Origin: Candidatus Latescibacterota bacterium
GTDB taxonomy: Bacteria; Latescibacterota; UBA2968; GCA-2709665
Direction: 5' to 3'
Assembly: GCA_965203805.1 (NCBI GenBank)
Contig: OZ241917.1
Location: forward strand, 4,896,001 to 4,960,000
DNA length: 64,000 nt
Part shown: positions 7,980-28,304 of the stretch, piece after piece
Position numbering within the stretch: the stretch's first letter is position 1
How the letters are laid out: each line of letters opens with the position of its first letter
Position numbers and translations under genes: made by a program
Notes under the pieces: model-generated
What the model was told of the DNA's origin: nothing
Databases searched by the model: none
The model's input: the letters and a program-made list of their open reading frames with translations, nothing else

Positions 7980-8219
7980 GCGGATGATCAACTGAAACTC
8001 GAAGGGATTTTTCATTCCCTACATGATGGCGAAATTATCGAAGATTATCCGCATGATGAACCCTACCCAAGTTGTCTGATATATGGAAATAATGCGGATG
8101 GAGAGCCGATTCATAGCGTATGGGCGTACGATGACCGGAATCAAAGGGCAATTCTGATTACTGTCTATCGACCCAATCCAGGACGATGGATCAATTGGCG
8201 AGAGAGGAGGACCCGGTGA
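7980..8219 (+). pseudogene. 5'-truncated DUF4258-family toxin
   Basis: Frame reads ADDQLKLEGIFHSLHDGEIIEDYPHDEPYPSCLIYG...PIHSVWAYD...LITVYRPNPGRW; no in-frame start found after the promoter; TGA overlaps the ATG of the YgiT gene. Confidence 0.7.
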
Positions 8220-9349
8220 TGGCGTCCTATGAGGAATGTCCGGTTTGTGGCGGTCCGATTGTTGAGGGGGAAATCGAGGAGATTTTACGTGGAGACGTCG
8301 TAAGGGAGACGGCAAGAATCCGGACCGACGTCTGCCTGAAATGTGGGGAACGCCTTTATACGCCGGAGGCGGCACAACGTCTCGAAAACACAAGGTCAAG
8401 GCAAGAGATCAGGAAAACGGCTGTTGTCCAAAACAAGGCGCTTTGTGCCAAAATGGAATACGAGGTCTGGTTTCTCAATTTTCTGGAACAGCGAATCGAC
8501 CGGGCTAGAGAGATCGACCAAAGCCCTGTGCTCAGAATCACGAGCGGAGTTGAACCCTCGAACATCAAGATGACGTTCGTAGATTCATTCTCGAATGATG
8601 CATCGCTCATCCATGCGATGATGCCGCTCACACTTGTTGGTTCCTTCAAAGTGCTCGATATGATCTTCGAATGGGTCCTCGAAGAGAATTGCAAATTGGG
8701 AAAAATCCGACAGGTTCCGTGGCGCTTCACTGATAAGGAAAAGCTACTCAAGAACGTATCCAATCTCCAGTTGCCTCCTCTCTTAGTGAAGAATGCACAC
8801 TTTTTCACCTATGCCAGGGCGCTTTTTCTCACACTGGCGCGATTTCGGAATGAGGTCGTGCACAGCAATAGCTTTTCCGTATCCAGAGATACATTGACTC
8901 TGTCGAGTTCCCGATCTGGCGCCAACCTGACCCTGTCCGGGAAACAGATGGACTGTCTGGTGAGGTTCGTGCGCATTCTCGCCCGTTCGCTAATCGGCGA
9001 GGTTTCTGTCGACGCATACAAGCACAGGTTGATTCGCTCTTGCCTCGACGTACTCGCGCCTGTTCACGGGTTGGGGACGTTCAATCAACAGATGCCTCGA
9101 TTCGCGCGCGTGGAATTCACCGTGCCCAGAAAAGGACCCGCTTTCCCAGCGAATTTGAAACAGGTGAGGGAGTTGATTTCGAAGACATTTCGAGATCAGG
9201 AAGTGTTCTTTGACCTCAAGGTGCGGGCTGTCGACGGCGACAATCTCGTCGCCAGGTGGCATTTTTCGCCGGATGAAGTGCCGGACGGGGACCAGTTGAC
9301 GCTCTACGAAGAATCCCACAAGACAAACCGGGTAGAAGTCGTCAGCTAA
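8219..9349 (+). CDS. YgiT/MqsA-type zinc finger fused to a putative HEPN-like domain
   Basis: CPVCGG...VCLKCGERLYTPE zinc ribbon, then about 300 aa containing RNEVVH (Rx4H). Confidence 0.65.
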   Translation: MASYEECPVCGGPIVEGEIEEILRGDVVRETARIRTDVCLKCGERLYTPEAAQRLENTRSRQEIRKTAVVQNKALCAKMEYEVWFLNFLEQRIDRAREIDQSPVLRITSGVEPSNIKMTFVDSFSNDASLIHAMMPLTLVGSFKVLDMIFEWVLEENCKLGKIRQVPWRFTDKEKLLKNVSNLQLPPLLVKNAHFFTYARALFLTLARFRNEVVHSNSFSVSRDTLTLSSSRSGANLTLSGKQMDCLVRFVRILARSLIGEVSVDAYKHRLIRSCLDVLAPVHGLGTFNQQMPRFARVEFTVPRKGPAFPANLKQVRELISKTFRDQEVFFDLKVRAVDGDNLVARWHFSPDEVPDGDQLTLYEESHKTNRVEVVS

Positions 9350-9515: not shown

Positions 9516-10313
9516 ATGTCCCGCAAGAGCGCTATCGAGTGGACCAACGCGACCTGGAATCCGGTTACCGGATGCACGAAGGTGAGCGCCGGCTGCGACC
9601 ACTGTTACGCCGAACGGCTTTCCGAGCGGTTTCGAGGCGTTAAGGGACACCCGTTCGAGACCGGCTTCGAACTGACGCTTCGACCCGCGCGCCTGGAACA
9701 GCCGCTGGGGTGGCGGCGGCCGCAGCTCATTTTCGTCAATTCGATGAGCGACCTGTTCCACAAGGATATTCCTGCGGACTACATTCATGGCGTATTCGAC
9801 ACCATGGAACGCGCGGACTGGCACATCTATCAGGTGCTCACCAAGCGCAGTTCCCTGATGCGCCGGTTCGTCGAAGAAAGGTATCCGAACGGACCGGCGC
9901 CACCACATATCTGGCTTGGCGTCTCCATTGAGAACGACACGGCGCTCACGCGGCTCCGACACCTCAAGGAGACCAACGCGTCCGTACGTTTCGTCTCATT
10001 CGAGCCATTGCTGGGCCCGATCGGGACGGTGAATCTTGAGGATGTTCACTGGGTGATTGCGGGAGGGGAAAGCGGACCCAGAGCACGTCCGATTGAGGCG
10101 GAATGGGTACGTGAATTGCGGAACCAGTGCGAGACCCAGCGCGTCGCCTTCTTCTTCAAACAATGGGGCGGGAGGACCCCGAAAGCGAACGGCAATACGC
10201 TGGACGGAAGGGAATGGATGGAGTATCCGGAGAGCGGAGGAAGGGGCGTGGACATTGAAACGATTCCGCAGTCGCATCACCAATCATTCACGACACTTGA
10301 TAAGCTATCCTGA
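9516..10313 (+). CDS. Phage Gp37/Gp68-family (DUF5131) radical-SAM-like protein
   Basis: SAIEWTNATWNPVTGCTKVSAGCDHCYA, FVNSMSDLFH, WVIAGGESG, FFFKQWGG. Confidence 0.95.
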   Translation: MSRKSAIEWTNATWNPVTGCTKVSAGCDHCYAERLSERFRGVKGHPFETGFELTLRPARLEQPLGWRRPQLIFVNSMSDLFHKDIPADYIHGVFDTMERADWHIYQVLTKRSSLMRRFVEERYPNGPAPPHIWLGVSIENDTALTRLRHLKETNASVRFVSFEPLLGPIGTVNLEDVHWVIAGGESGPRARPIEAEWVRELRNQCETQRVAFFFKQWGGRTPKANGNTLDGREWMEYPESGGRGVDIETIPQSHHQSFTTLDKLS

Positions 10314-10327
10314 CGTCCTAGGACATG

Positions 10328-10528
10328 CTACGTCTGGAGTGCTTCTCTAATCGCTTTCTCCATTTGCGGACGAACCTTTTCCATACTCTGACGCGCGGAA
10401 TCCTCTGCCATTTGCAGAATTTCCGCAAGCACTTCCCCTTCAGGTTCGGGCGGAGTCACTACCTCAGGAGTCAGATACTTCTCTTTTCCTTCCCGCGCCG
10501 GTTTCACCTGACGAGATGTCCGAGCCAT
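10328..10528 (-). CDS. Small 66-aa hypothetical protein, partner of the Ntn-hydrolase-like gene
   Basis: AGGAGGA RBS 6 nt before the ATG; overlaps the 3' end of the upstream gene. Confidence 0.6.
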   Translation of the reverse strand: MARTSRQVKPAREGKEKYLTPEVVTPPEPEGEVLAEILQMAEDSARQSMEKVRPQMEKAIREALQT

Positions 10529-11870
10529 GGCGTGTCCTCCTGTATGAAGTTCTCTCGAAATAAGATGGATTTAACTCAGGTGAAAAATAGTGTTTTCGCT
10601 TTATCCAAATCAACCCGTCGCCCTTGGTAATCAACGCTACGTCAGTTGGGCCACCTACCGTCTCTTCCTCGCTTGATACACGTCTCTTTAGGACAGTCAG
10701 ATTAACAAGTGATTCAGCCATTTCCGCCAGTTGCTCTTTTGGCAACGCTGCCACGACTTTTACGATCGGCTGCGCGAAATATTGCGAACCGACTTTTCTA
10801 ATTTCCTCGACAAAAGAATCTGCCAACTGTGGGTAATATTGCGCCAGCACTTCGTGCAATTTATCCGTGTCTATTTCCAAATTTTCATCCAATATATCCA
10901 GCAAGTCGTCGGTATATCTTCTCAAGTGTGATATTACGGACTGGTGTAGATATGGGATATAATCACGTGAAATACCTTCCATGAATTGATAGACCATATC
11001 GATCTGGGCAAACGGAACAATCCAAGTTGGATTGTCTGTACTTAGTGCCACGTGCTTGATCGAATGCACCTTGAGTATATCTTTGACCATCCCCTCGATT
11101 TGAAACATTGAAATCGCTGGAAATATGTCCTGGTCGCCGAACCCGGAGACGACGACACCCGAAGTGAGTCCGGAAGGTGGATAGCCTTTAACTTGATCAA
11201 AGTAGCCACAGATTGCCTTTACAGCGATATAATTGAGCTTCTGAGGGAATCCCCGTCTAAATTGGAGTTGGCCAAACACGGACGCGCGCTTGTCTCGAAG
11301 GTGCTTGCGCATCGATTCCCGCGTTGTTTTCTCGAAATCACCCGGAGCACTTTCAATTAGATCGGCTTTTTTCGCCCTTGCGTGAAACTCATTCACAACT
11401 TCCTCAGTCAATTCACATTCTAACTGTCCGACTTCTTCGATTTCAAATCGGCCGGTTTGTTCGGTCGCCTGAGCGATCGTCTTATCCAACCGCCTCTGTA
11501 TTTCCTGCCTAATCTCAGAAAAAATCTGCTCGGCCAAGTGAATTGCATAATCCAGTTGATGTTGGTCGCTTATTCGGTCGCCTATTTCCCGTTCCAGGAA
11601 TTCGCAGAAATCGTCAGCGTACTCGTGGAGTTTAGTAAAGGTCCTATTCCCCAGAATACGCCTGTACTCCTTCACAATCGTTTCCCAGGGAATTGACATG
11701 AAACCGGCGTTGCCATAAACAAGGATTCCAACTGGTGCAACCTCGGAGAGAGCGAAGAGTTTATTCGCTGAAGAGAAGATCTTCTGATTGCCGCCTGGAT
11801 ATGTTGTAATTGCGCTATCGGCTGCCAATGCAACAGCTTGGAGATTCAGGATGGCTATTTCGGCTGTCAT
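10464..11870 (-). CDS. Proteasome-beta/HslV-like Ntn-hydrolase with a large helical insertion
   Basis: N-terminal M-T, AADS, NKLF lysine and C-terminal VGGPTDVALITK motif. Confidence 0.65.
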   Translation of the reverse strand: MTAEIAILNLQAVALAADSAITTYPGGNQKIFSSANKLFALSEVAPVGILVYGNAGFMSIPWETIVKEYRRILGNRTFTKLHEYADDFCEFLEREIGDRISDQHQLDYAIHLAEQIFSEIRQEIQRRLDKTIAQATEQTGRFEIEEVGQLECELTEEVVNEFHARAKKADLIESAPGDFEKTTRESMRKHLRDKRASVFGQLQFRRGFPQKLNYIAVKAICGYFDQVKGYPPSGLTSGVVVSGFGDQDIFPAISMFQIEGMVKDILKVHSIKHVALSTDNPTWIVPFAQIDMVYQFMEGISRDYIPYLHQSVISHLRRYTDDLLDILDENLEIDTDKLHEVLAQYYPQLADSFVEEIRKVGSQYFAQPIVKVVAALPKEQLAEMAESLVNLTVLKRRVSSEEETVGGPTDVALITKGDGLIWIKRKHYFSPELNPSYFERTSYRRTRHGSDISSGETGAGRKREVSDS

Positions 11871-12419
11871 ATTCTTAAGAGCTTCTGTTATTATCCGAGC
11901 CCCGGTTGAATAGTACTCTGGTATCGGGGAAAAAAACCCAGAGCACTCAGGTGCTCCTGAAACATCACGGTGTCCCGGTCGCTATAGCTGTCTGAATATA
12001 ATTTCGAGACAATAGACAGAAAAGTCAATTCTACCCGCGTCGGAAACCGCTCGATACCAGTGTGAATGCAAAAAAGACAATTGCCTTACAACTGCCTCAA
12101 ATAGACAGGATCTATATCTGCAGAACCCGACCCTTCCATAGATAGCGGTGCCAAAACAATATCCGATCCTTCAGAGTAATTCGGATGCCAGACTACATGG
12201 ACGGCCAATATTGCACGGGCTAGGTCAACCACGTCAACCCCCGTAAGATATAATAACTGAAGCCGCAGCCAACGCGCAAGTCGGGATTCGGCTTTTGTGG
12301 CCAACATGCAGCGGCTACACTTTCGTCAATTCACCCCGTCGCTTTATGCGCTCAGCTAACGCAAGTCCGAACCCGCGTTGTCTTTTCTCACTTCGAATCA
12401 GCAATATATGTGCCGCCCC

Positions 12420-12768: not shown

Positions 12769-14100
12769 TCAGATTGTCGACCGGCGTGGCCGGTCTGGAT
12801 GCCGGTATCTGATGCCGGCGATCTTTTCTTCCTGGTCCTCCCAGTAGTCGTGTATAAAGGCGACGATATGCACGGCGTTCTCGACGACTATGTGGAGATG
12901 GTTCTCGTAGAACTTCGCTCGGGGGTAGGAGCGCCATCTGACGATTGGACCTTGGGCAGACCAGACGTCGCTATCGCTGCGGTAAACGTGCAGTTGATCG
13001 GATGTCTCAAGCAGAATTCCGAAGTACGCCAGACCGGCCTTGATTGCGTCGGTTTTTTCTTTGAGGGGAATTGAACCGACGGAACCGAAGGGAGATTCAC
13101 GGTGCTGGAGGCGGGCTTCGTTCCTCGCCTCGGAGCCGGAGGCAGTCATCGTCTTGTCAGAAACCAGCAACGCTTTGGGCGCGTCGATTTCTGGCTTTGT
13201 GACGTTTTTCTGCACATATCGCATCACGGTTACTTCGCCACTGGAGATGCCGCAAATCTTGTCTCCGGCGCCCCAGCTTAAGCCGTTTACACGTTCTGTC
13301 CGAAGTATCTCCGATCCATCGAATTCACGAATGAACTCCCGCCGGAGACGCCCCGACCTGGCAGGATCCGGTTGCCAGCCGAAAGCCAGCAGACAGGATT
13401 CTCCAACCAGTGACGTGCTGTAGACACTCGCAAATGCCCAGTCCGCATAGGAAGAATGTCGGGACGTCAATTGCCTAACGCTGCCATTTTTGCCATCGGA
13501 TCCCGAAAAGTAGACGTTTCCGCCATTCGTATCATCATCGCGCGAACGAAGGTCCAATTCGAAGAGTCCGTCATCGCCAGCAGAAAGAGCCATTCGTCCT
13601 TGTGATGCCGAGGCCGAATAGACCTGGGCATCCCAGTGCTTCTTCGGTCTGGAACTGACCGGGTACCGCCGGTTATTTCGATGGGCTGTAGCAGACCAGA
13701 GCCCGCCATAGGTGACGAGATAGAGTCTATTATTGAAAATCAACGTGTCCGTGGGGAGTTCCGAGACCGGATTGTCCTGTTCGCCATATAGGGCCTTATT
13801 CAGTAATCCTGGCGTTATGACCGGAGCTTCAGCCCTGAGCTTAACAAGACTCGTATCAAGCAGCTTCCGAAATGACGGATCGTCGAACACAGCGAGAACG
13901 TCTGGATTGTACAGGGAGTTTCCACGTAACCAAGCCGCTTTGACTGCGAGGGACCCACCGGCTTTTGGATACGCCAGATCGATCAGTCTCTCCCAGTCGT
14001 ACACGGAAAGACGGCCATTATAGTGCCAGAGGTACAAGCGACCTCGGTAGATCTGCACATCCCAGAAATCGCCCGGAATCGAAAGTATCAAAGGTTGCAT
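12769..14100 (-). CDS. Hypothetical beta-rich (propeller-like) protein
   Basis: 443-aa ORF from ATG 14100 with purine-rich RBS; Trp/Tyr-rich strands; overlaps the stop of the upstream small gene. Confidence 0.7.
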   Translation of the reverse strand: MQPLILSIPGDFWDVQIYRGRLYLWHYNGRLSVYDWERLIDLAYPKAGGSLAVKAAWLRGNSLYNPDVLAVFDDPSFRKLLDTSLVKLRAEAPVITPGLLNKALYGEQDNPVSELPTDTLIFNNRLYLVTYGGLWSATAHRNNRRYPVSSRPKKHWDAQVYSASASQGRMALSAGDDGLFELDLRSRDDDTNGGNVYFSGSDGKNGSVRQLTSRHSSYADWAFASVYSTSLVGESCLLAFGWQPDPARSGRLRREFIREFDGSEILRTERVNGLSWGAGDKICGISSGEVTVMRYVQKNVTKPEIDAPKALLVSDKTMTASGSEARNEARLQHRESPFGSVGSIPLKEKTDAIKAGLAYFGILLETSDQLHVYRSDSDVWSAQGPIVRWRSYPRAKFYENHLHIVVENAVHIVAFIHDYWEDQEEKIAGIRYRHPDRPRRSTI

Positions 14101-14455
14101 TTCTTCCCTCCGGATATCTTCGCGACGTGGTGCTTCTGAAGGAGCCCCTGCTTGACCCAAATCTTGAGCACACATATAGGCGGACGATCCTGGGTGCGTC
14201 TCCGATAATCCGCAGGATAACCGTGCCATTTGGATATGGTACTACCGTCAACGAACTTCCCGAAGAATAGTGATTCCCTGTGAACATTGATTCCGACTGT
14301 CCGAAGGCGACGACCTCCGGGCTCGGCCGCCCAACAAATCTGACCTGGACTGCGCGCCGTAGGTAACGCAGCCTTAAACAAGGCGACTTCGTCATCTATG
14401 GAAATTGTCCACGTGCAGCTTTCGCTCGTTGGCGATCCACGGTGCTTTGGATGGA
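14088..14455 (-). CDS. Small toxin-like protein with HPKHR and WHGYP motifs; start uncertain, possibly 5'-truncated
   Basis: Frame extends upstream of the track's 14381 start: FHPKHRGSPTSESCTWTISIDDEVALF...KWHGYPADY; the 5' end runs into a DUF5131 fragment. Confidence 0.55.
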
Positions 14456-14784: not shown

Positions 14785-15684
14785 ATGGATCATCCAATTG
14801 CACCTCCTAAGGGAGCCAATTCCCTTGTTGAAGCACGCTTATCCGAACTCCTCAAGGAAATTGAGAAAGAGACAGACACCGATTGCCTTTTTTACAGTGG
14901 GCCTATCGCTTTCGGTGCAGATAATCGGATTCGCGACGCCGTAGAGTCTTTCGATGTACGACGGGGAAAGCTTCTTTTTATCTTGGAGACGTCCGGTGGA
15001 TTTGCAGAAGATGCGCGTCGCGTTTCAGATGTTCTAAGGCATCACTTCTGTGAAGTCGACTTTCTGATACCCAGCCATGCGATGTCCGCCGGCACGATAC
15101 TGGCGTTGTCTGGAAATGCAATATGGATGGATTACTACTCAGTACTTGGCCCGATCGATCCGCAGGTACCCAGTCAAGATGGTAGACAGTTTGTTCCTGC
15201 CCTTGGGTATCTGGTCAGGTATGAAGAGTTGGTCGACAAAGCAAATCGTGGAGAAGCAGGTGCTGCCGAACTGCAGATTCTGGTAAATAGCTTTGATCAA
15301 GGTGAACTTTACAAATATACGCAGTCACGCGATTTGTCTGTCGCACTCTTGGTTGAGTGGCTAGAGAAATACAAGTTTAAATACTGGAACAAAACAGAGT
15401 CCCGCAAAAAGCGAGTAACTCGGAAGATGAAGAAAGAACGCGCGCGGGAAATTGCGAATGAATTGAATAATCCAAATAGATGGAACTCACATGGAATTGG
15501 TATCAACATGGAGGTGCTTCGACGCGAACTTAAGTTGCACATTGATGATTTTGGAGAGAGCCAGCCATTAAGAATCGCAGTCCGGAATTACCATAAGCTT
15601 GTAACGGACTATGCACTAAATATGCGGTTCGACAGCCTTGTGCAAACTCGTGAGATCGTCGACGGTCGACGATGGGGAGAGTAA
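14785..15684 (+). CDS. SDH-family ClpP/crotonase-fold serine protease
   Basis: ILETSGG, AMSAGTILAL (catalytic Ser), SVLGPIDPQ, SHGIGI. Confidence 0.85.
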   Translation: MDHPIAPPKGANSLVEARLSELLKEIEKETDTDCLFYSGPIAFGADNRIRDAVESFDVRRGKLLFILETSGGFAEDARRVSDVLRHHFCEVDFLIPSHAMSAGTILALSGNAIWMDYYSVLGPIDPQVPSQDGRQFVPALGYLVRYEELVDKANRGEAGAAELQILVNSFDQGELYKYTQSRDLSVALLVEWLEKYKFKYWNKTESRKKRVTRKMKKERAREIANELNNPNRWNSHGIGINMEVLRRELKLHIDDFGESQPLRIAVRNYHKLVTDYALNMRFDSLVQTREIVDGRRWGE

Positions 15685-16016: not shown

Positions 16017-16907
16017 TCACCGCCGAAACCGTGGCGTCCAACTCTCTTCCAGCGCTTCGTCTGAATCTTCCACTTCGAAATAGTCCTCATCAGCGAATTC
16101 TGGGCAAGAGAGAACAGTAAGTACGCGTCCGTAACTTCCAAGCCCGATTACTTCCTCCCAAGCTTGGAGCGAATCTTGGCCTCCAAGCCAGGTAGCGATT
16201 TCGACCTCACCCTCCGCACGGGCTTCCTCTTGCTCTACATCCGATCTGCGTTGTATAGACTCGGTAACAGTATCCGACGGCACCAGCATACCCTTTCTCG
16301 GCCAATCTATACCTCTCAACGACTTCATCTTATCGGACATAAAACAATAGTCAACTGTGCCACTGCTGCTGACAACGATGGCCACAGCCTCGTCTGTAAG
16401 CCCAACATATCGGATCGCCGCTGCTGTAAGAGAGGCTATCGCCTTTTCTCGAACGGCCTCGATACCTTTGAGACCGGCATCCGAGCCATATATGACTTGG
16501 CGAACGAGAGTAGTCGGCATCAAGAGACCAGCTGCGAAGTAGTCTGCCTCACGTTCGTAACGATCAATAGAGACAAATTCTGCCCGTGAATGGTGTTCAT
16601 CCTCTTCGAAAGGAATATGATCAAGATGACCGTCGATAAAGTAGTGCCCGAGTTCATGGGCGATGCTGAATCGCTGAAAACCTTCGTTCGGAACTCGAGT
16701 GGAGTAAAGAATCCCAAAGGAATCGCCATGGCGAAGCAGCATGCCCGATACGCCTTTTCTTGGCGATTGCATCGTTTGTACAATTATCCCGCGGGTCTGT
16801 GCTAATGTCTTTAGATCCACGGGCAGAGCCAGAAGGCTTTCTTCTTTAAGTAACCGTTCGGCTTGGCGCAGAAGCGACTTACCTCGATGTTCGGATACGA
16901 GATTCAT
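16017..16907 (-). CDS. capP: ImmA/IrrE-family metallopeptidase, CapP-like CBASS regulator
   Basis: RFSIAHELGH (HExxH), EREADYFAAGLLMP; coupled to an HTH gene and divergent from CBASS. Confidence 0.8.
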   Translation of the reverse strand: MNLVSEHRGKSLLRQAERLLKEESLLALPVDLKTLAQTRGIIVQTMQSPRKGVSGMLLRHGDSFGILYSTRVPNEGFQRFSIAHELGHYFIDGHLDHIPFEEDEHHSRAEFVSIDRYEREADYFAAGLLMPTTLVRQVIYGSDAGLKGIEAVREKAIASLTAAAIRYVGLTDEAVAIVVSSSGTVDYCFMSDKMKSLRGIDWPRKGMLVPSDTVTESIQRRSDVEQEEARAEGEVEIATWLGGQDSLQAWEEVIGLGSYGRVLTVLSCPEFADEDYFEVEDSDEALEESWTPRFRR

Positions 16908-17263
16908 CGCTCCTCACTGTCGTGTTGCCCACGGTCTCGAGCGGCCAGAAAGCGCAAGAAGTCCTCGGCGGTTTGGCGGTTCTCGCCGGTAAGATTCACA
17001 ACGTCACGATACAGCGGGTCGGCCGAAACCGCCGTGTTGGGATCATCAGCTCTTCCAACTAGATAATCCGTCGTCACATTAAGTGCGTTTGCTAGTTTTC
17101 TAAGGTTGTCAAACGACGGCTTTCTGTTGCCGCCCTCGAAATGGGCGATGGAACTGGGTGGCAGCCCGACCGCTCTTGCGAGCTCAGCTTGAGTCATGCG
17201 TCGCAGGTTTTCTCGTGCTGAACGCAGGCGGTATTGGAAAAATTCGGACGGTCTTTGGGGCAT
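16904..17263 (-). CDS. capH: XRE HTH repressor, CapH-like
   Basis: MTQAELARAVGLPPSSIAHFEGGNRKPSFDNLRKLANALNVTTDYLVGR; divergent from the CBASS operon. Confidence 0.8.
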   Translation of the reverse strand: MPQRPSEFFQYRLRSARENLRRMTQAELARAVGLPPSSIAHFEGGNRKPSFDNLRKLANALNVTTDYLVGRADDPNTAVSADPLYRDVVNLTGENRQTAEDFLRFLAARDRGQHDSEER

Positions 17264-17280
17264 TTTTCTCTTTTTATGTC

Positions 17281-17326
17281 GATTTCGACAATATAACTTG
17301 ACGAATATATCGAAATCCTGTATCTT
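17281..17326 (+). promoter_or_regulatory. CBASS promoter with overlapping inverted-repeat operator
   Basis: TTGACG(17298)-N17-TATCTT(17321); GATTTCGA (17281) and TCGAAATC (17310) flank the -35 box. Confidence 0.6.
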
Positions 17327-17420
17327 CATTTATCAAGATAACATAACAGGGGTCATTTTTGCAAGCGCCAATTTTTCCAACGGGATTTTGTGGCTTTCTG
17401 TAGGGGAGAAAACCGAAAAT

Positions 17421-18404
17421 ATGTGTAAGCCTTTTCACATTTTGTCCATTGATGGCGGCGGACACCGTGGGATTTTTGCTGCCCACATATTGAAGAGAAT
17501 GGAAGAGGAGTGGCAGATTGATTGGCAACGACAATTCGGAATGCTGGCAGGCACCAGCACAGGTGCAATTTTGGCTGCCGGATTGGCTTCTCAAATTTCA
17601 GCAACGCACCTAACTGAATTCTACGAGACCCATGGAAGCGACATTTTCACGCCAAGAAGACGGGCGTACCCAGATCCTTTCAAGCTATTCACGAGCCGGT
17701 ATTCAAGCCCGAAGCTAAAGAAACTCCTTGAGAAGGAGTTCGGTGAAACGCTGCTTGGCGAGATAAAGATCCCGCTCATTCTACCTGCTGTCGACGTCGG
17801 CAACGGATGCGTACATGTCCTTAAGTCCAGGTACGATCCTTCGTTTACCAGGGACTATAGGGTGCGTGTGTCGGATGCTGTTCTAGCGTCGTGCTCTGCG
17901 CCGACCTACTTCGACCCTGTTGTAATTGACGACAAATACCGGCTTGTTGATGGAGGACTCTGGGCTAACAGTCCGTCTCTAGTGGCAGCAATTGATGCCA
18001 ACTACCGCCTCAAAATTCCACTTGAGAAAATCAGAGTGCTTTCCATTGGTACCGGAAAAAGCAAAGTGTTCTATCCTAGGAGCGATGGTAGGTTTAGAGA
18101 CTACTTACTTCGAAGTTGGCAGGGTTGGGGCTTTGTGACTCGTTGGCAGCGCAGTAAGTTCATCGATCTAATCCTGAATCTTCAGTCAGAAAATGCCCAC
18201 AACACGCTCTGCCTTATGTTTGGCGAGAGTCCGATCAATCCGAAACGGGTTCTCCGCTTAAATTTCGAATCGGATCGGCCGTTGCCCCTGGACTCAGTTA
18301 GAAAGCAAAGCGACTGGATTTCTGAAGCGGACCGTACTTTCACCCACCAGTCGGATAAAATAGCACGATTCTTGTCTGTCAAAGGAGGAAATCAAGATGA
18401 ATAG
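17421..18404 (+). CDS. capV: CBASS patatin-like phospholipase effector
   Basis: DGGGHRG, GTSTG, SAPTYF and DGGL motifs; directly upstream of the CD-NTase. Confidence 0.9.
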   Translation: MCKPFHILSIDGGGHRGIFAAHILKRMEEEWQIDWQRQFGMLAGTSTGAILAAGLASQISATHLTEFYETHGSDIFTPRRRAYPDPFKLFTSRYSSPKLKKLLEKEFGETLLGEIKIPLILPAVDVGNGCVHVLKSRYDPSFTRDYRVRVSDAVLASCSAPTYFDPVVIDDKYRLVDGGLWANSPSLVAAIDANYRLKIPLEKIRVLSIGTGKSKVFYPRSDGRFRDYLLRSWQGWGFVTRWQRSKFIDLILNLQSENAHNTLCLMFGESPINPKRVLRLNFESDRPLPLDSVRKQSDWISEADRTFTHQSDKIARFLSVKGGNQDE

Positions 18405-19632
18405 TTGGGACCGTCACCGGCAATTGAATCAGATCTTTGAAGATCTTGTGGAGGAAATCGCTCTACCACCGTCGCGGTACCACGAGGCCAGAGAGCGCTA
18501 CAACGCGGTCGGAGCTTGGTTGGATGCACCGGACTCCGAACTTGCGCTGTACAAACCCATCATTTCCCCGCAGGGATCATTCGCGTTAGGCACGGCTGTG
18601 CGCCCTATCGGCAGTGATGAGACCGACGTAGATGCCGTGTGCCTGCTCCAGCTTTCCCCCATTCAGGTCACCCAGAGGCAGTTAAAGGATTTGGTTGGCG
18701 ATCGCCTCAAGCATCCACAAAGCCGTTACAAGAACATGATTGAACCCAAAGGAGGCGGACGCCGCTGTTGGACGATTCGGTACGCGGACCAAGCCAGATT
18801 TCATCTGGATGTGCTCCCGGCTATTCCGGACGACTATCGGTGGCTTGTGAACTTAGGGGTTCCGGAAGTGTGGGCTGAGACAGCCATCCGCATTACCGAT
18901 AGAGAGACGTGGGATATCGACCCGGAGTGGCCGCGAAGCAATCCAAAAGGCTATGCGGCTTGGTTCATTAGCCGCATGCAGACGCGTCTCGATGAGGCCA
19001 AATACGCCCATGCAAGGGAAACACGCAAGGACCTCGACGAGACCATTTACGCACACGAGATGGAAATTCGCGCAGAAGTAGAGAAGATTCAAGATTTCGA
19101 CGTAAGTACACCCCTGCAGCAACTCATACAGATCCTCAAGCGTCACCGTGACCTGCGCTACAACGGTGACGACGATAAACCCATTTCGATCATCATTACC
19201 ACTCTCGCAGCGATGGCGTACGATAACGAAGCCAGCATCGGAGAAGCGATAGCGAATGTCGTACCGAATATGCGAACAGCAATTGAGTACCGTAACGGTG
19301 TCTACTGGGTTTCAAATCCTGTGAATCCTAAGGAGAACTTTGCCGACAAGTGGGACGAATGCCCACGAAAAGCCGAGCTGTTTTTCGAATGGCTAAACGC
19401 CGTAGAGCGGGAATACCAGAATCTCCTTACCGATACAGGATTCGAAAAAGTTGGAGGGTATCTGATCGAAACGTTCGGACGCAGAGAAAGCGAGGAGACA
19501 ATGGCGAAATTTGTAGCCCGGACGTCTCCCGGTGTTGCGCCAGCAGTGGTACTCACTCCGCGCAAGACCCAGCAGACAGCCAAACCAAAGATTGAGGCAC
19601 CATCGAATCCAAGCAAACCTTGGGGACGTTGA
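18397..19632 (+). CDS. cGAS/DncV-like nucleotidyltransferase (CD-NTase)
   Basis: QGSFALGTAVRP, DVD, FHLDVLPA, SNPKGYAAWF, LKRHRD, NPVNPKENFADKW; C-terminus KPWGR. Confidence 0.92.
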   Translation: MNSWDRHRQLNQIFEDLVEEIALPPSRYHEARERYNAVGAWLDAPDSELALYKPIISPQGSFALGTAVRPIGSDETDVDAVCLLQLSPIQVTQRQLKDLVGDRLKHPQSRYKNMIEPKGGGRRCWTIRYADQARFHLDVLPAIPDDYRWLVNLGVPEVWAETAIRITDRETWDIDPEWPRSNPKGYAAWFISRMQTRLDEAKYAHARETRKDLDETIYAHEMEIRAEVEKIQDFDVSTPLQQLIQILKRHRDLRYNGDDDKPISIIITTLAAMAYDNEASIGEAIANVVPNMRTAIEYRNGVYWVSNPVNPKENFADKWDECPRKAELFFEWLNAVEREYQNLLTDTGFEKVGGYLIETFGRRESEETMAKFVARTSPGVAPAVVLTPRKTQQTAKPKIEAPSNPSKPWGR

Positions 19633-19636
19633 TCCA

Positions 19637-20398
19637 ATGGAAGAGGCAACCGCGCTGCTGGTGATGAGCCAGATGACAGAGGTCCAAGCTCAACATCCGA
19701 GTCTGGAACTTATGCTTAAATCAGGTGAAGTGAGGATTCGTGGGGAGATAGGTTTCTGTTTGGACCATAACTCCCGCACGATTGAAGATACCTACCAAGT
19801 CGAGATTCATATACCGGATGACTATCCAGAATCGCCGCCAAACGCGTTTGAAACCGGAAATAAGATCGACGAAAGTTTTGAACACTTCTTGATCGATGGG
19901 AGCCTATGTCTCGGGGCTCCACTTGAGATACGCCGAAAATTCCTGCAACACATGAATCTCCTTCGGTTCATTAACGAACTGCTTGTCCCGTACCTATTTT
20001 CGTATAGTTGCAAGCGAGACTTCGGTGAGACACCGTTCGGCGAACTTGCCCATGGCTGTACGGGAATAAGACAATACTACCAGGATTTGTTTCGGGTTGA
20101 GGATTACGTAGCAGTACTCGGCCTACTGAAAGTGTTGGCGGACGACAACTACCGGGGCCACCTTAAATGTCCCTGCGGAGCACGATCGAATGTGCGCCGA
20201 TGTCATGGGTCACAGTTGCGGGAACTCTCTTCCTTTCAGTCTTGCGATCAGTTTATTTGGGACGCAATTTCTGTTTATGAAACTCTTTCCGAGAACGAGC
20301 GTAAAGTAGCAATTGGCAGAAAACTATTGCCGAAGAGACTATTGAAGAAAAAAAACCGAATGGCGGGATCCAGACAGTATCGAGCAGAGGCGAAATAG
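19637..20398 (+). CDS. CBASS-associated E2 (ubiquitin-conjugating-like) protein with C-terminal SEC-C zinc motif
   Basis: IPDDYPESPP, H-FLIDGSLCLG (E2 catalytic Cys), CPCG...RRCHG. Confidence 0.8.
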   Translation: MEEATALLVMSQMTEVQAQHPSLELMLKSGEVRIRGEIGFCLDHNSRTIEDTYQVEIHIPDDYPESPPNAFETGNKIDESFEHFLIDGSLCLGAPLEIRRKFLQHMNLLRFINELLVPYLFSYSCKRDFGETPFGELAHGCTGIRQYYQDLFRVEDYVAVLGLLKVLADDNYRGHLKCPCGARSNVRRCHGSQLRELSSFQSCDQFIWDAISVYETLSENERKVAIGRKLLPKRLLKKKNRMAGSRQYRAEAK

Positions 20399-20522: not shown

Positions 20523-23500
20523 TCACTCCACACTTTTTCCTGTCAACATCAATATCCCCGCAATCCTCCGCGCGACCTCTGCAAAGTACTGTACTTCCTC
20601 GGCGTTGAGCGCTCGATCGAGCACCTTGTGTTCACGATATGACAGCCATTTCTTGAGTACCTGATAGCCACCGAGTTTGTAGTTCCAGACCGAGGCGGGT
20701 ATGTTGCGCCAGAATGCTCTGTCGCTCAGATATATGTCAAACGTACTGTCACCCAGTACCGATTTCGGCGCGCCCAGCGCTTGGTTTTCATCCGCCGTGT
20801 ATTCTCGTTTTTCGATTCGTCCTTGCCCCGGCATCACTGCTTCGCCAGCCCCGTAATGGCCCCATCCTGCGGTAAGCGCGAAATCATCACCGGACATATT
20901 GCGGCTATCAATGGTCGAGGGTACAGCGATGTTGGAAATCCCAGATTGCAGAGGAGTCTCGATTAAGCCCTTTACACGCTTGCTTGGATCAAGCAGAGAG
21001 GCAATTTTGCGGCCCTTTTCCGCCGATCTGCGAAGGGCGTCGGCGGCACCTTCGGCCTTTCCATCAGGCCAATCCGGAATCGGTATTCGTGGCCAGCCCA
21101 TGCGTATTGCATCTGCGTTGGTTTCCCGATACGACGGATCATGTAAAACTGCCAATAAATGGTGGAACAGATCCTCTACATACAGACCGAGTCGTTTTAC
21201 GTATTCTTCGGCAGTAGCCGAAAGGTTGGGCCGACGTCGAAGTCGATTGTCGCTTAGCCCGAGACCGTCGTCTCGGAGATAGGCTGGGAACATTGCGGCA
21301 CCTCTTTCTATTAGGTGAAAGGACCCAACGTGTGTTGTGAAGAAGGCTTGTGGTTCCGACGCACCTTTCCGCAGATGTTTAGCCGAAGAAAGCCATAAGT
21401 TACCCTTGAAGACATGTGGTTTGTAATCAGGTGCAGGTGCAGTAAGCAGTCGACGGTCTGGCTCCCAATAAAGCCAGCGGATGTCAAATGGCCTATATGA
21501 GATTCGAATAAACCCGGAATCATTCGGACCGCCGCGTAAGAGAAGTGCATCACGTGTAGCCCGTGAATCGGAAATCTTGAACGCGGATGAATCTCTCATC
21601 GCCGCAGGACACAATCGCCCAATTTCTTCATGTGAAATCGCTGGATTGAAGTAGTCTGAGACTTGCTTCTTTAGGCGATCCTCGTCAATTCCAACGAGGA
21701 GACTATCGCGCCCGGTATGGACACCGGGAAATGAATGAGGCATCAGATCGGGCAACGCCGGCCAATCAAACCAGTCCTTACTCATTGCCATCGGTTTGAA
21801 TGGCAAGCCTAGTCGAAGGTTGGGTTGCAGCCCAATATAGCCATCATCTATTTCCGCCGACTGGACGCTTTCCAACAACGCCTTTCGTCTTTCATCCGCC
21901 TTTGCCTGCGGAAAATCCCGATAAAGAACGCGAGAGACTATTGAATCTTCGAGGCTGTTGCCCGACTTCGAGAGTAACGCGATGCTCGTTCCAACCTTGA
22001 TGCCCGGAGATTGTCCCTGAAGTGCGAACACTGTTTCGCTGGTTCTTCCGTCGGGCGCATATTCGGATATGATACGGTCGCCATGAAGATTGTCTATTCG
22101 AATCGCTCCAAACGTATCCAGAAAGCGCTCTCGCATCCCGGAAAAGGACATACCGTCAAGCCACGAATAGTTGGAGATGAAGCATACAACACCTTGCCCA
22201 GTTTTTTCTGTGATGCGACGTTCCGAAACGCGAAAGAACCGTACGTAGAGATCATTCAAAGCCCTTGAATCAGAGAGACTTACTTGCGTGGGTGTTCTGT
22301 ACGCCTCCAATAGTTCTTTTTCCTCTTCGATCGCAACACCAGCAAAGCCGTTGTATGGCGGATTGCCGAGGATTACCAGGATTGGCTTTTCCTGCTTTAT
22401 TTCACCGGCGAGGTCCCTTTCATTCTTTAGTTGAGGAAAAGCGTCCATTTGCGATCCCTCGCCCGTTCCCTCCCAGTCTGTCAGCGCATTGGTGAGAAAG
22501 ATGCCGGGTCGCTCGTTTCCATTATACGAAAGGGCCGCATCGAGATCTCTCAATGCAAGGTCCACCTGAAGGTGCGCGACGACGAAAGGCGCAGGCATGA
22601 TCTCGAAGCCAAAGACGCGCTTTGTCGCTGCCTGTCGGACCTTTTCTCCGGTGAGTGCACCGAGGCCGTGTCCTTGCAGATTAGTCGCGATGCGCTGCAG
22701 CACTTCAGCAAGAAAGGCCCCGGTGCCGCAGCATGGATCGAGAACGTAGACGTTTTCGGCGGCCAACCCTTCGGCGATGCCTAAATCCTCCTTGAGTGCT
22801 CTATCTACGCGGGCGACCATGTATCGCACGACTTCAGACGGCGTATACCAGACGCCCAATTCCTTGCGAAGTTTTGGGTCGAAGGCTTCCAAGAATGGTT
22901 CGTAGAAATAGGTAACCGAGTCCCCTTCTTGAAAACGTGCAAAGAAGGCGTCGCGATCCACACGGTCAAGCGCTGCCGATGTGCAGTCCAATACGTCTGT
23001 CAAGTTTAGCGGATCCAGGTACTCAGGGTCTGATAGCCGATGAAACAACTCCCGCAGCACCGGTGCTCGTAAATGCCGAACCGCCGTGAGCCACACAAAC
23101 CTGTCTCTTCCATTTGCCGTTCGCGCCCATAATACCCAAGCAGAAAACATGCCATAGAAGAGCGTCTGAACGAGGGCAGAGTGAAAAAACTCGTTTCCTT
23201 TCTTACCCTCAAAATGGACCCCAAGCGACTCCTCCAGCGCTGAGCGGATCGCTACGAGCGACTTCGGATCGTCAGCAGCGTCCACCCGCGCCAGAGCGTC
23301 GCGGGCGTACGAGGCGAGCAACCATGCAAGATCTTTTGGCTCGGTGATCGCCGCCTGGTGAGACAGCGCGCGAATGAGGTATTCGCTTAGACCTGCGCCG
23401 ACCTCGTTTGCAAAGGCGCGCGGCTTTTGCAGCCTGCGGTTAAACTCCTCGTCGGTGCCAGCGAGGCTATAGGATTCGAAGTCGGTCTCATTTCCGGCTC

Positions 23501-23909
23501 CGTCGCGACCGACGAGAGTAAATCCACGAAAGTTGGTCATCAACACCAGGTGGTACCGGGTCCAATATCGTGTCACCTGACCACGAACCTCCGGCGTGTC
23601 CATATTTTCCGCTGTAGACTTTACTTCTACGACGCCGCGTTCCGGTATCTGCCCGGGGCGCGGATTGCGCTTCTGCACCTGATTTGCGGTGTAAAGACCG
23701 AAATCCGGATGTCCCTCTCCCTGGTCTGCCAATTCGCTTACACAGAACACCTTCGGCTTCAGCGTCTCCCCGACTGCGTTCAGCAGATTGGCCAATGGTG
23801 TATAGCTTGAGCGTTCGCCAGTTCCGCCACCTGAGGCGCGGATCAATCGTAGTCCCGTGAAGTATTTCGCAACCGCTGGCGTGAGTTTGGCCGTTGTTTT
23901 GGTCATCAT
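20523..23909 (-). CDS. Type ISP/IIG-like restriction-modification enzyme (N6-adenine MTase plus TRD, no helicase)
   Basis: PDF...VEVK nuclease-like motif, GVWYTP, LDPCCGTG, GNPPY, WNYKLGGYQVLKKWLSYR. Confidence 0.88.
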   Translation of the reverse strand: MMTKTTAKLTPAVAKYFTGLRLIRASGGGTGERSSYTPLANLLNAVGETLKPKVFCVSELADQGEGHPDFGLYTANQVQKRNPRPGQIPERGVVEVKSTAENMDTPEVRGQVTRYWTRYHLVLMTNFRGFTLVGRDGAGNETDFESYSLAGTDEEFNRRLQKPRAFANEVGAGLSEYLIRALSHQAAITEPKDLAWLLASYARDALARVDAADDPKSLVAIRSALEESLGVHFEGKKGNEFFHSALVQTLFYGMFSAWVLWARTANGRDRFVWLTAVRHLRAPVLRELFHRLSDPEYLDPLNLTDVLDCTSAALDRVDRDAFFARFQEGDSVTYFYEPFLEAFDPKLRKELGVWYTPSEVVRYMVARVDRALKEDLGIAEGLAAENVYVLDPCCGTGAFLAEVLQRIATNLQGHGLGALTGEKVRQAATKRVFGFEIMPAPFVVAHLQVDLALRDLDAALSYNGNERPGIFLTNALTDWEGTGEGSQMDAFPQLKNERDLAGEIKQEKPILVILGNPPYNGFAGVAIEEEKELLEAYRTPTQVSLSDSRALNDLYVRFFRVSERRITEKTGQGVVCFISNYSWLDGMSFSGMRERFLDTFGAIRIDNLHGDRIISEYAPDGRTSETVFALQGQSPGIKVGTSIALLSKSGNSLEDSIVSRVLYRDFPQAKADERRKALLESVQSAEIDDGYIGLQPNLRLGLPFKPMAMSKDWFDWPALPDLMPHSFPGVHTGRDSLLVGIDEDRLKKQVSDYFNPAISHEEIGRLCPAAMRDSSAFKISDSRATRDALLLRGGPNDSGFIRISYRPFDIRWLYWEPDRRLLTAPAPDYKPHVFKGNLWLSSAKHLRKGASEPQAFFTTHVGSFHLIERGAAMFPAYLRDDGLGLSDNRLRRRPNLSATAEEYVKRLGLYVEDLFHHLLAVLHDPSYRETNADAIRMGWPRIPIPDWPDGKAEGAADALRRSAEKGRKIASLLDPSKRVKGLIETPLQSGISNIAVPSTIDSRNMSGDDFALTAGWGHYGAGEAVMPGQGRIEKREYTADENQALGAPKSVLGDSTFDIYLSDRAFWRNIPASVWNYKLGGYQVLKKWLSYREHKVLDRALNAEEVQYFAEVARRIAGILMLTGKSVE

Positions 23910-27000: not shown

Positions 27001-27546
27001 CCGTGCCCAACCCTCAGTTAGATACGCACGGCCGAAGTCTGCGTCCGTGAGAACGATGTCTTGTGGCCGACTGAGCGCCCCGTGCACATGGACGATTCCG
27101 GTGAAGTGTCCACCTAGTGGCAGGGCAGGAGATGTAAAGACTTCAGTCTGTGATACTAACGAACAGTCTCCCGCTTGCTCGAATAGCGTATCGAAATTGG
27201 TTGTGACGATGCGAGGCGCCATGGATTCCGGATGCAGCTTCAGCAGATCTCGATGCAGGTCAGTGGGTTTCGGGATTTTTTTACAACAGTTTTTATTCAG
27301 CACTTCTGCTGCAATCTTATGTACGTCGACACCTTGGTGTTTCAACCTGCCGAGAAACCGATCCTCGGGTTCGTTTTTTTTCTTCTCTACCCCAGTGCCT
27401 TTCGCAATCGCCTTCGCCAACTTTGTGAAGCTTGGAAGACTCGCAGGTTTTCCCATTGAAACTCCCGCGCCGGCGAAAACGACAAGCTTGTCGTCACGCA
27501 ATGCGTTTAATATTGGTCGCGGGAAATCTAAGCCGCCTATTTTCAT
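24001..27546 (-). CDS. SIR2-family NADase with long C-terminal region (Dsr1/DUF4020-like defence sirtuin)
   Basis: VFAGAGVS, TTNFD, HVHG, FVGYSHSD; C-terminal WWDRWLKKYWANRLNGVP. Confidence 0.85.
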   Translation of the reverse strand: MKIGGLDFPRPILNALRDDKLVVFAGAGVSMGKPASLPSFTKLAKAIAKGTGVEKKKNEPEDRFLGRLKHQGVDVHKIAAEVLNKNCCKKIPKPTDLHRDLLKLHPESMAPRIVTTNFDTLFEQAGDCSLVSQTEVFTSPALPLGGHFTGIVHVHGALSRPQDIVLTDADFGRAYLTEGWARRFLVDVFRSYTVLFVGYSHSDTIMNYLSRALPADQTESRFVLTHETDDNNWQYLGIEPITYVKSSDNDHSALYRGVNGLAKNTRRSILDWRREITEIAANPPPLDEEEIDIIDDALRDPVKTRFFTAAAVSIEWVDWLDKRNHLAGLFGTSELSERDGLLVQWLAEKFAYRHPDELFLMIGRRYEQPHPKFWDALCRNVALRNEPASDAHTLSRWVSLLLVTAPAGMKKEHPLLWLGEYCVKSELFDRAVDVFDAMAASQLVVKRGFSSPDSDEEEQSPRIDVELGFVSDPSTIKKLWINNLKPNLDRVAEPLLTSVFKHLEVQYRTFEAWQKATRDWSPASFSRSAIEPHEQDEYPKTIDVLIDAARDCLEWLAKNNPKVAASWCNQLVHKTSPLLRRLAVHTLCLRPDLNPNEKIDWLLNCMNLNDISAHHELFQFMKSTYPKADEDHRRSVIEAIQANCQQSPEHENTEEVDAAYDHFTWLHWLHNAAPDCRIAKADLEDILMRNPKFKPRAHPDLTHWMSSVPGGHQSPWTVGELLSKPAEEWADELLSFQDTGINEPDRLGLDIAVSDAAKRDFQWGLDLADAVAKRRNWDTDLWNTLMRLWSETELDEIMTCNVLKRLERNDLHEKYARPIADFLFTLVRDRDTQLVHKLLPQANEIATNLRRHLKPEPVVFHFEHWLTRARNHTAGILAYFWLHSLENWRNHQDPKPDVLKEVYRTALSDIVRDDTVLGRLGRSVLARYFSFLLTSDEEWTKSNLLPLFSDYAESGDYLAVWDGFLYGNLSSSSAELMKDALLGAVSRIVNDPLGERQKSFMRRYVTLLTYFVEDPQEVWIPRLFAHADESARCAFAWHIDDRLSNMSGLQQQEWWDRWLKKYWANRLNGVPRSLNSDEVEAMFRWLPNLESVFVEAVTLAVGMPTDNVKHDGEVLYRIRKSDLCENHPESVAKLLIFLEHISSESYASTEERELIGILREANIPDKLKLKLQELAARRGYT

Positions 27547-27744: not shown

Positions 27745-27875
27745 ACGCGTCTTTCAAGGCTCCGGGTGTCTACGGCACTTGAATTTTGCAGTTTGTTCCC
27801 ATATTTTTGGATGTCGCCGGTGTGATAACTGTCATTAGCCCGAGAAAACTTCCTTTCCGTACGCAGGTCGTCGAA

Positions 27876-28304
27876 ATGCAAAAGAATCCCTTCCAATCCC
27901 TGGAACAGCGTATTGCGAGCCTGCTCGAACCCCGTCCGGAGGTTCTGGAGGCTTATCTGTTTGGCTCCCACGCTGGTGGTGTGGCACAGCCCCACAGCGA
28001 TGTCGATGTCGCTGTATATGTCGAAGAAGCCAAAGTCAAAGAAAGCACTTTCGGGTATCGGGCGCAACTGACGACGGAAATAATAGCCGGCCTCCACAAC
28101 AACGACGTCGATCTACTGATTCTAAACCAGGCTCCCCCGGTTCTTTACTACCATGTGCTGCGAGACGGTATCCGGCTCCTGTCCCGTGATCTGGCGGCGA
28201 CAACGACGCGGGAAGGCTACGCGGTTTCCCGATATTGCGACTTCGTTCCCCAGCTTGCAAAAATGGATGCGGTTTGGCGTTTGCGCGCCGGTGGTGAACG
28301 GTGA
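27876..28304 (+). CDS. mntA: MntA-family minimal nucleotidyltransferase antitoxin
   Basis: YLFGSHA...SDVDVAV, VDLLILNQAPP. Confidence 0.88.
   Translation: MQKNPFQSLEQRIASLLEPRPEVLEAYLFGSHAGGVAQPHSDVDVAVYVEEAKVKESTFGYRAQLTTEIIAGLHNNDVDLLILNQAPPVLYYHVLRDGIRLLSRDLAATTTREGYAVSRYCDFVPQLAKMDAVWRLRAGGER

Follow-up and report, generated by a model that had tools for sequence, protein, structure and literature searches.

The proteasome homologues that lie outside the 20S, HslV and Anbu groups form a large set of enzymes without known function. Fuchs, Alva and Lupas described 22 new proteasome homologues in 2021, and the superfamily core given in that paper consists of the triad Thr1 or Ser1, Asp17 and Lys33, with Gly47 forming the oxyanion hole (PMC8665760). 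Two of the described groups, PMI-3 and PMI-4, carry long insertions after H1/H2 and between H3/H4, which in the authors' view would clash with ring and double-ring assembly (PMC8665760). PMI-4 comprised 501 nr90 sequences from many bacterial phyla, Euryarchaeota and phages (PMC8665760, Table 1), and the authors report that no genomic context or co-occurrence pattern hinted at function (PMC8665760). Here we describe a two-gene locus in a 64,000-nucleotide (nt) stretch of the genome of a Candidatus Latescibacterota bacterium (assembly GCA_965203805.1, contig OZ241917.1, positions 4,896,001 to 4,960,000; hereafter the window, whose own numbering is used for its features). The locus encodes a 468-amino acid (aa) protein with a predicted proteasome-beta-like, N-terminal nucleophile (Ntn) fold, referred to below as the protease, and a 66-aa partner. 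We found that a small gene directly at the protease stop codon is a nearly constant companion of this protease family, and that the pair travels across bacteria, archaea, phages and plasmids.

The protease gene was identified at 10464..11870 on the minus strand from the list of open reading frames (ORFs), and its product starts with MTAE. A first-pass annotation, made from the letters of the window alone, had drawn attention to three motifs in a protein of this length and start, and all of them were located in this ORF: AADS at residues 16-19, NKLF at residues 36-39, and VGGPxDV within ETVGGPTDV at residues 403-411. The ETVGGPTDV codons (10638..10664, minus strand), which stand out by conservation among 245 proteins, lead into strand S10. 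The partner gene lies at 10328..10528 on the minus strand and was recognised from the ORF list, its relatives, the ratio of nonsynonymous to synonymous changes (pN/pS) and its positional equivalents elsewhere. Its start is buried in the 3' end of the protease gene, with an overlap of 65 nt. The perfect ribosome-binding site that the annotation had reported for this overlapping frame is present: the Shine-Dalgarno motif AGGAGGA is seen in the letters of the protease coding region itself (10535..10541, minus strand), and the spacing between it (10541-10535) and the partner ATG (10528-10526) is 6 nt. A terminator-like hairpin with a T-run, found by a consensus scan about 70 nt upstream of the protease ATG (11940..11957, minus strand), is a possible upstream boundary of the two-gene module; the scan found 4 terminator-like sites compared with a mean of 2.6 in shuffles, which is weak evidence alone. 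Neither protein had a match in Pfam, PADLOC-DB v2.0.0 (E<=1) or NCBIfam. Both ORFs are real genes rather than chance reading frames, because relatives of them were found and the partner is under purifying selection.

We modelled the window protease with AlphaFold from a 37-sequence alignment, and obtained a predicted local distance difference test score (pLDDT) of 80.8 and a predicted template modelling score (pTM) of 0.74. When this model was compared with the PDB by Foldseek, all of the best matches listed were proteasome subunits or Anbu, with a probability of 0.98-1.00, E ~1e-3 and target-normalised template modelling (TM) scores of 0.38-0.51. A replicate model of the homologue from Methanolobus bombayensis, which is 37% identical and was modelled from a 127-sequence alignment, reached a pLDDT of 93.2 and a pTM of 0.90. 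It gave 38 PDB matches at E<=1e-3 (down to 8e-5), all of those listed being proteasome beta subunits or Anbu, and the highest target-normalised TM score, 0.56, was to the Thermoplasma proteasome. Among predicted viral structures the top match was a phage 'proteasome beta type-2 subunit' (target-normalised TM 0.65), and the nearest named cluster in the ESM Atlas, in which 75% of the members carry PF00227, had a score of 0.89 and is a lead only. The two models thus make it close to certain that the large protein has the proteasome-beta-like Ntn fold, an alpha-beta-beta-alpha sandwich in which helices H1-H4 flank two central sheets (S1-S11), and the fold proposed in the first-pass annotation was borne out in this way by both of them.

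Conservation was scored on 245 full-length family members, 221 of which start with Met-Thr. T2 was conserved in 95% of them, most exceptions looking like mis-called starts; D18, S19, K30 and K37 were conserved in 100% and G48 in 96%, and the ETVGGPxDV motif reached 96-100% per position (E403, T404, V405, G407, P408, D410 and V411 each at least 96%). A profile of the first 62 residues, compared with PDB sequences, gave proteasome alpha-3 as the top 9 of 11 matches at E ~0.5, and in this sub-threshold, in-register alignment D18 and K37 fall on the positions of Asp17 and Lys33, respectively. On the basis of this alignment and of the strand order in the models, we propose D18 and K37 as the equivalents of Asp17 and Lys33. 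The proposed catalytic codons accordingly span 11760..11867 on the minus strand (Thr2 at 11865-11867, Asp18 at 11817-11819 and Lys37 at 11760-11762), and the catalytic Thr, Asp and Lys anticipated from the single sequence are the residues found to be conserved at the levels just given. K30 was considered as the Lys33 equivalent and set aside for K37 on the alpha-3 register; as it is equally invariant, it may also be catalytic. The full-length profile gave only chance coiled-coil or helical matches among PDB sequences (SURF1-like, FtsY and Rop), and hhalign of the protease alignment against E. coli HslV gave a probability of 0.1%, which is uninformative because one side was a single sequence. 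The protease has no propeptide. Methionine aminopeptidase tolerates Thr at the second position, so the nucleophile would be exposed by ordinary Met removal.

In the models, strands S1-S5 are followed by H1 (62-73), H2 (82-99), a helix bundle to about residue 230, a second sheet (237-288) and H3 (290-298), and then by two long helices to about residue 375, a last helix (378-398), S10 and S11 (409-425) and a C-terminal helix. DSSP assignment of the models places helical insertion I after H1/H2 at about residues 100-232 (11175..11573, minus strand) and helical insertion II between H3 and H4 at about residues 300-377 (10740..10973, minus strand), the boundaries of both being approximate. Insertion I is predicted to consist of helices 102-139, 144-168, 179-199 and 208-228 in the window model and of four helices at 101-212, with pLDDT >95, in the model of the Methanolobus homologue. 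Insertion II is formed by helices 304-330 and 335-375 in the former, and lies at 288-357 in the latter. Together, the two insertions add about 200 helical residues to the proteasome-beta core. The helical block of about 300 aa that had been noticed between the motifs is therefore helical as supposed, but it is not one block: the two insertions are split by the four-strand beta-sheet at 237-288. A search of the Atlas with residues 62-232, which span insertion I, gave no family above 0.9 and no informative lead.

For the comparison of loci, one genome per species was scanned with the ETVGGPTDV motif as the search pattern; at least 601 stretches matched, 568 were confirmed, and the best 80 (L001-L080) were analysed. 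Two of these loci carry split homologues, namely frames of 108 and 331 aa in L022 (8001-9316) and of 149 and 246 aa in L077 (8001-9304), which may be frameshift pseudogenes or assembly errors of metagenome-assembled genomes (MAGs). We left these two out of the partner count, which covered the 78 loci where the homologue is intact and the downstream sequence is long enough, and scored as a partner any same-strand ORF of 50-100 aa whose start lies within -100 to +40 nt of the protease stop. Such an ORF was present in 76/78 loci, compared with 77/309 control genes, which were the other genes of these loci that encode 300 aa or more (Fisher p ~1e-34). Across the 76 positive loci the partner starts at -78 to +34 nt of the protease stop, and the two misses have a 40-aa ORF (L010) and a 93-aa ORF at -102 (L073). 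The pairing of protease and partner is thus close to certain, and the conserved small ORF expected in the first-pass annotation has its positional equivalent in nearly all loci. Annotated coding sequences of 55-58 aa also follow the homologue in a lambdoid Providencia phage, the Streptococcus satellite phage Javan103, a Porphyromonas phage and an E. faecium plasmid. The 66-aa protein had 23 database relatives with 63-79% identity and no identical entry, and the 468-aa protease has an identical protein-database entry, which suggests that gene calling in the source genome missed the small ORF.

The BLAST clusters of the partners hold 56 ORFs from 54 loci, 10 ORFs from 8 loci and, for the window and L001-L006, 7 ORFs. 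The consensus of the main cluster shows a basic N-terminus, the motif yrSxeEfekxyFP, a variable linker and an amphipathic helix (dP..G..lA.e.L..ir..l), and the partners of the window clade carry VTPPEPEGE and then LAEILQMAEDSAR..M.KVRP.ME.AIR. The partner C-termini are variable and without conservation, none of the 76 partners scored above threshold in any Pfam family, and the partner is predicted to be largely unstructured with a C-terminal helix. Partner codons 23-66, which do not overlap the protease gene, gave a pN/pS of 0.17-0.30 between the window and its two closest loci, and the partner is under purifying selection. Each minor cluster corresponds to a single clade of the protease tree, with a support of 99 by the Shimodaira-Hasegawa-like approximate likelihood ratio test (SH-aLRT), indicating that both genes are inherited together, which is not in itself a demonstration of co-evolution. 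We do not claim that the partners are one proven sequence family: a hidden Markov model (HMM) of the main cluster, with E 0.003 and 0.22 against phage partners, was too weak for this with E=0.04 against the window's partner (95-sequence set), and the conservation that we claim is therefore positional and clade-wise. Co-folding of the protease and partner alignments gave a best score of 0.15 (mark 0.32) in a run without controls, and allows no verdict on binding.

The protease family is large and widely spread. A word-indexed search in which 8000 candidates were scored gave at least 4341 relatives at E<=1e-3, nearly all of them 430-490 aa long among the matches listed, where the few named ones are called hypothetical. 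When the 50%-identity representatives were searched exhaustively, 5107 clusters reached E<=1e-3, and 2308 of them E<=1e-30. A search for fused relatives of greater length (820-2340 aa) brought up none, which is weak evidence. The 80 loci come from >15 bacterial phyla and from Methanobacteriota, Hydrothermarchaeota and Woesearchaeota, and the nearest relatives of the window copy are in two Latescibacterota MAGs, with 77% and 73% identity. In a quick maximum-likelihood tree of 72 full-length copies, Methanolobus pairs with a Petrotogales bacterium (support 100) and a Dehalococcoidia bacterium with a Methanobacteriota archaeon (support 97). As archaea and bacteria are mixed in such well-supported pairs, the protease family must move horizontally.

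Copies were also found on mobile elements. PHROG 5990 aligns end to end with the protease (E 7.6e-105), and homologues occur in 10 records of plasmids and in 13 of phages or satellites. Seven of the 13 are Streptococcus phage satellites, where the pair forms the last two genes of the element; phage satellites are known to carry defence genes. In the Providencia phage, the pair has the Q antiterminator/dam genes on one side and the holin on the other, and in a Stenotrophomonas phage it adjoins the lysis cassette on the opposite strand; such positions are typical of accessory 'moron' genes. In two chromosomal loci the cassette sits within a conserved operon, between fabD and fabG in a Cloacimonadota MAG (L012, 2472-3945) and between cdhC and cdhD, which encode acetyl-CoA synthase subunits, in an ANME-1 archaeon (L044, 8001-9486). 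Its presence inside normally contiguous operons suggests the precise insertion of a very small mobile unit without a recombinase of its own nearby.

Beyond the partner, no conserved neighbour was identified among 847 neighbouring ORFs of the 80 loci, the largest homologous group being present in 6 loci at scattered positions. At a cut-off of E<=1e-8, PADLOC matches were found for 36/275 of the neighbours within two genes of the homologue, in 29/80 loci, compared with 9/136 ORFs from three arbitrary 50-kilobase (kb) regions of E. coli K-12, in which ORFs were called alike and all 9 matches were housekeeping genes (odds ratio (OR) 2.1, one-sided p=0.032); 5 of 280 neighbour references had out-of-range coordinates and were dropped. 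The strong PADLOC neighbours include SspE, DrmMI, TIR (PDC-S66), bSEFIR, HmaC, subunits of type I and type III restriction-modification (R-M) systems, SoFic, PDC-S01 and PDC-S03. Among 146 immediate neighbours, 60 had a Pfam match (E<=1e-6), 14 of them to R-M or other defence-type families and 6 to transposases or integrases. Residence in defence islands and mobile elements is frequent, not universal.

The window copy itself lies in such an island. The GC content is 0.46-0.55 over 8 to 28 kb and 0.56-0.64 in the flanks, and the cyclic-oligonucleotide-based antiphage signalling system (CBASS), SIR2 and R-M genes are present at 16-30 kb, so that the low-GC island among these genes described in the first-pass annotation is found as reported. 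A 387-aa ORF without a match (8186-9349) lies upstream of a DUF5131 gene (9516-10313, plus strand; PDC-M30B/M41B at 339 bits, from Pfam and PADLOC), which converges on the module, its stop being 14 nt from that of the partner. On the other side, a 486-aa ORF directly upstream of the module (12769-14229, minus strand) had no significant match in Pfam, PADLOC, NCBIfam or PHROGs. It is followed by a gene for a ClpP-like SDH-type serine protease just upstream of CBASS (14785-15684), which was not recognised by PADLOC, by a divergently transcribed CapP-like M78 peptidase gene (16017-16907, minus strand), and by the CBASS genes for a patatin effector, a CD-NTase and an E2-only protein (17196-20398, plus strand). 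Further on lie the genes for a type IIG/ISP R-M enzyme of 1128 aa (20523-23909), a Dsr1-like SIR2 protein of 1181 aa with a DUF4020 C-terminus (24001-27546), a nucleotidyltransferase of the Polbeta family (27786-28304) and HEC-01A of 366 aa (28768-29868), the last overlapping a 252-aa ORF without a match. Outside 9.5-30 kb, 16 proteins of the window were scanned, and PADLOC matched none of them.

DUF5131 was found within two genes of the homologue in 3/6 of the closest loci (L001 9561-10649, L002 11466-12227 and L004 6779-7654) and in 0/74 others, and in L002 it has a PDC-M30A-like neighbour. We considered the DUF5131 gene (9516-10313) and the 486-aa gene (12769-14229) as further, family-wide components of the module, and rejected both because no neighbour is conserved across loci. 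At the edge of a second low-GC patch of the window (40-42 kb), adjacent Schlafen/AlbA_2 and HATPase_c_4 genes (41350-43185, minus strand) look like a split or tandem ATP-dependent DNA-binding protein.

We tentatively propose, with a confidence somewhat short of even, that the two genes form a self-contained, horizontally mobile threonine-protease module of an abortive-infection or toxin-antitoxin-like kind, in which the partner is a regulator and likely an inhibitor. Met removal would expose Thr1 as the nucleophile of a substrate-specific, non-compartmentalised threonine protease, and the helical insertions may serve as a lid or recognition surface. The partner would be made in a fixed ratio through the overlapping or abutting frames and act as the cognate regulator of the protease, most likely as a stoichiometric inhibitor sitting in the substrate cleft. 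A cleft inhibitor is favoured because in most partners a motif of two hydrophobic residues and a Pro precedes an amphipathic helix, and a Pro just behind the scissile bond would make the partner hard to cleave. On infection, or when the element is lost, the partner would then be depleted or displaced, and the released protease would cut specific cellular or viral proteins. The layout is that of type II toxin-antitoxin modules, with adjacent co-oriented genes, one of them small, in overlapping or abutting frames. The inhibitor role of the partner is a guess from its sequence, and together with the defence role it is the weakest step of this explanation.

Several observations weigh against the proposed module. 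The enzyme-first order is the rarer one among toxin-antitoxin pairs, and the HMM of the main partner cluster barely reaches the window's own partner, with the E of 0.04 given above. PF00227, the Pfam Proteasome family, had no match to the protease at E<=1, and the match that ties the protease to the proteasome family by sequence lies below threshold (E 0.5). Neither protein fits any model of PADLOC-DB v2.0.0 (2023). The enrichment of defence genes is weak (OR 2.1, p=0.032) against a control that is E. coli K-12 and not the genomes concerned, and at a cut-off of 150 bits the PADLOC matches were 17/275 compared with 3/136 (p=0.059). We put the defence role at about even. The island context and the 36/275 against 9/136 neighbours speak for the role that the first-pass annotation had assigned, but the second half of the loci is at baseline and many copies lie among housekeeping genes. 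Its description of an uncharacterised defence system holds in that no PADLOC-DB v2.0.0 model matches, but not for the protease family, which is already described as the PMI architecture and as PHROG 5990.

In a rival explanation, the pair would consist of an everyday cellular protease and a small factor for its assembly or specificity, active in regulated proteolysis or the stress response, and its defence and mobile context would be a by-product of frequent horizontal transfer. We consider this unlikely, even though 40/60 of the Pfam-annotated immediate neighbours belong neither to the R-M/defence-type class nor to transposases and integrases and are mostly housekeeping genes such as fabD/fabG, cdhC/cdhD, PCNA, recR and dnaK, and even though the PADLOC excess is confined to the first half of the loci (26/147), L041-L080 giving 10/128 compared with 9/136 in the control. 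These neighbour figures also count against the proposed module. The family is moreover very large, looks old and is present in both domains, and the PMI authors saw no informative context (PMC8665760). Against an ordinary cellular role, the neighbourhood is not conserved at all, and the tree is incongruent with taxonomy, as in the Methanolobus-Petrotogales pair with its support of 100. Copies also occupy accessory positions of a lambdoid phage, the ends of satellites, and plasmids, and the cassette interrupts the conserved operons at fabD|fabG (L012) and cdhC|cdhD (L044).

The same mobile copies could indicate that the module serves the element that carries it, either by addiction through post-segregational killing or as a means by which phages or satellites break down host defence or competitor proteins. 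Homologues with a small ORF in 13 phage or satellite and 10 plasmid records, the identity of the family with PHROG 5990 and the vicinity of the lysis cassette in a Stenotrophomonas and a Providencia phage are consistent with such a role. However, the best 80 of the 568 confirmed stretches are bacterial or archaeal genome contigs, transposases or integrases make up only 6/146 of the immediate neighbours, and phage and plasmid records are few relative to the size of the family. Accessory genes on prophages and satellites are, besides, often defence genes themselves, and we regard this explanation as quite improbable. The partner might instead be a dedicated substrate, cut at its hydrophobic-Pro region or ligated by transpeptidation in the manner of a connectase or precursor peptide, so that the product is the active agent. 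Strict pairing (76/78 loci), co-inheritance and the short conserved motif of the partner (yrSxeEfekxyFP) before a helix speak for a substrate, and connectase offers a precedent, in that a monomeric homologue with helical insertions acts as a sequence-specific ligase (PMC8665760, PMC7980362). But the partners diverge fast between clades with no evident shared recognition motif, VTPPEPEGE in the window clade standing against FP in the main clade. Their C-terminus is not conserved, unlike that of tag-type proteins, and the connectase architecture is absent, H1/H2 being present here; a substrate role is thus improbable in our judgement.

The protease family is not new, as it matches the published PMI architecture and PHROG 5990. 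What appears new is the near-obligatory small partner, its co-inheritance with the protease and the context of defence islands and satellites, because the defining paper does not contain the pairing and reports that no context was found (PMC8665760). We found no follow-up of PMI-4 in the open-access literature, where PMI-4 was mentioned only in PMC8665760, and no proteasome-like or Ntn-type defence system. A bolder claim is somewhat doubtful. In it, a proteasome-type threonine protease would serve for the first time as the core of an immune or abortive-infection module; the enzyme would be non-ring, restrained by a co-translated pseudo-substrate and released by infection to cut defined targets, and the module would be spread across bacteria, archaea, plasmids, temperate phages and satellites. 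The co-inherited mini-gene gives a concrete handle on PMI-type enzymes, its product being a candidate for the role of inhibitor, substrate or adaptor. In a defensive module, an Ntn threonine protease would be a new catalytic class among the protease-based immune effectors of prokaryotes, and the proteasome fold would be linked to immunity in both bacteria and archaea; as part of an immune module, the PMI-type proteins, the largest group of 'orphan' proteasome homologues, would gain a function and a partner for the first time. Without a defensive role, the two genes would still make up a compact unit of very wide distribution, and its movement into fab and cdh operons, phages and satellites would call for an explanation.

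Of the known small proteins linked to proteasomes, Pup resembles the partner in being about 60 aa long, predicted to be largely unstructured with a C-terminal helix, and encoded beside a proteasome-family gene. It differs in that none of the 76 partners had a Pup Pfam match or showed a conserved C-terminal Gly-Gly-Gln/Glu, and that no conserved ligase or depupylase neighbour was present in the 80 loci. We know of no dedicated small partner gene of connectase. Like connectase, the protease is probably a non-ring, substrate-specific relative of the proteasome with helical insertions near the active site. Connectase, however, is described as lacking H1/H2 and carrying a two-helix insertion between S3 and S4 (PMC8665760), whereas the models of our protease contain both H1 (62-73) and H2 (82-99) and only a short beta-hairpin between S2 and S4. 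With 20S proteasome beta subunits, Anbu and HslV the protease shares the fold, 20S beta and Anbu being the best structural matches, and an N-terminal Thr exposed by Met removal, as in HslV and Anbu, is predicted here from the sequence. It differs from all three by about 200 extra helical residues at two sites, where insertions are expected from the published models of PMI homologues to interfere with ring and double-ring assembly (PMC8665760). HslV is, in addition, compact (about 175 aa) and accompanied by the gene for the AAA+ protein HslU, whereas the protease has 468 aa and two insertions, and neither HslU nor another ATPase was found as a conserved neighbour in the 80 loci.

The protease-based two-gene defence and toxin-antitoxin modules, such as CapP/CapH, differ from our pair in catalytic class, Ntn threonine proteases not being represented in PADLOC-DB v2.0.0. 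They resemble it in the compact operon with translational overlap, the small and fast-evolving partner, the variable context, and the copies in defence islands, prophages and satellites. The closest likeness is to PMI-3 and PMI-4, which share with the protease the Thr1/Asp17/Lys33 core, both insertion sites, and the lack of a propeptide and of an AAA+ partner. As the insertions lie at the two sites that define PMI-3 and PMI-4, the family has already been described bioinformatically. The distribution of PMI-4 over many bacterial phyla, Euryarchaeota and phages is also seen here, and the protease is probably a member of PMI-4, matched by its modelled architecture and by distribution as published rather than by sequence. 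Two differences set the present family apart from the PMI-4 of the published account: with 5107 clusters at 50% identity against the 501 nr90 sequences reported, it is about ten times larger, and in place of the uninformative context given in that paper, it has a small partner gene at 76/78 loci.

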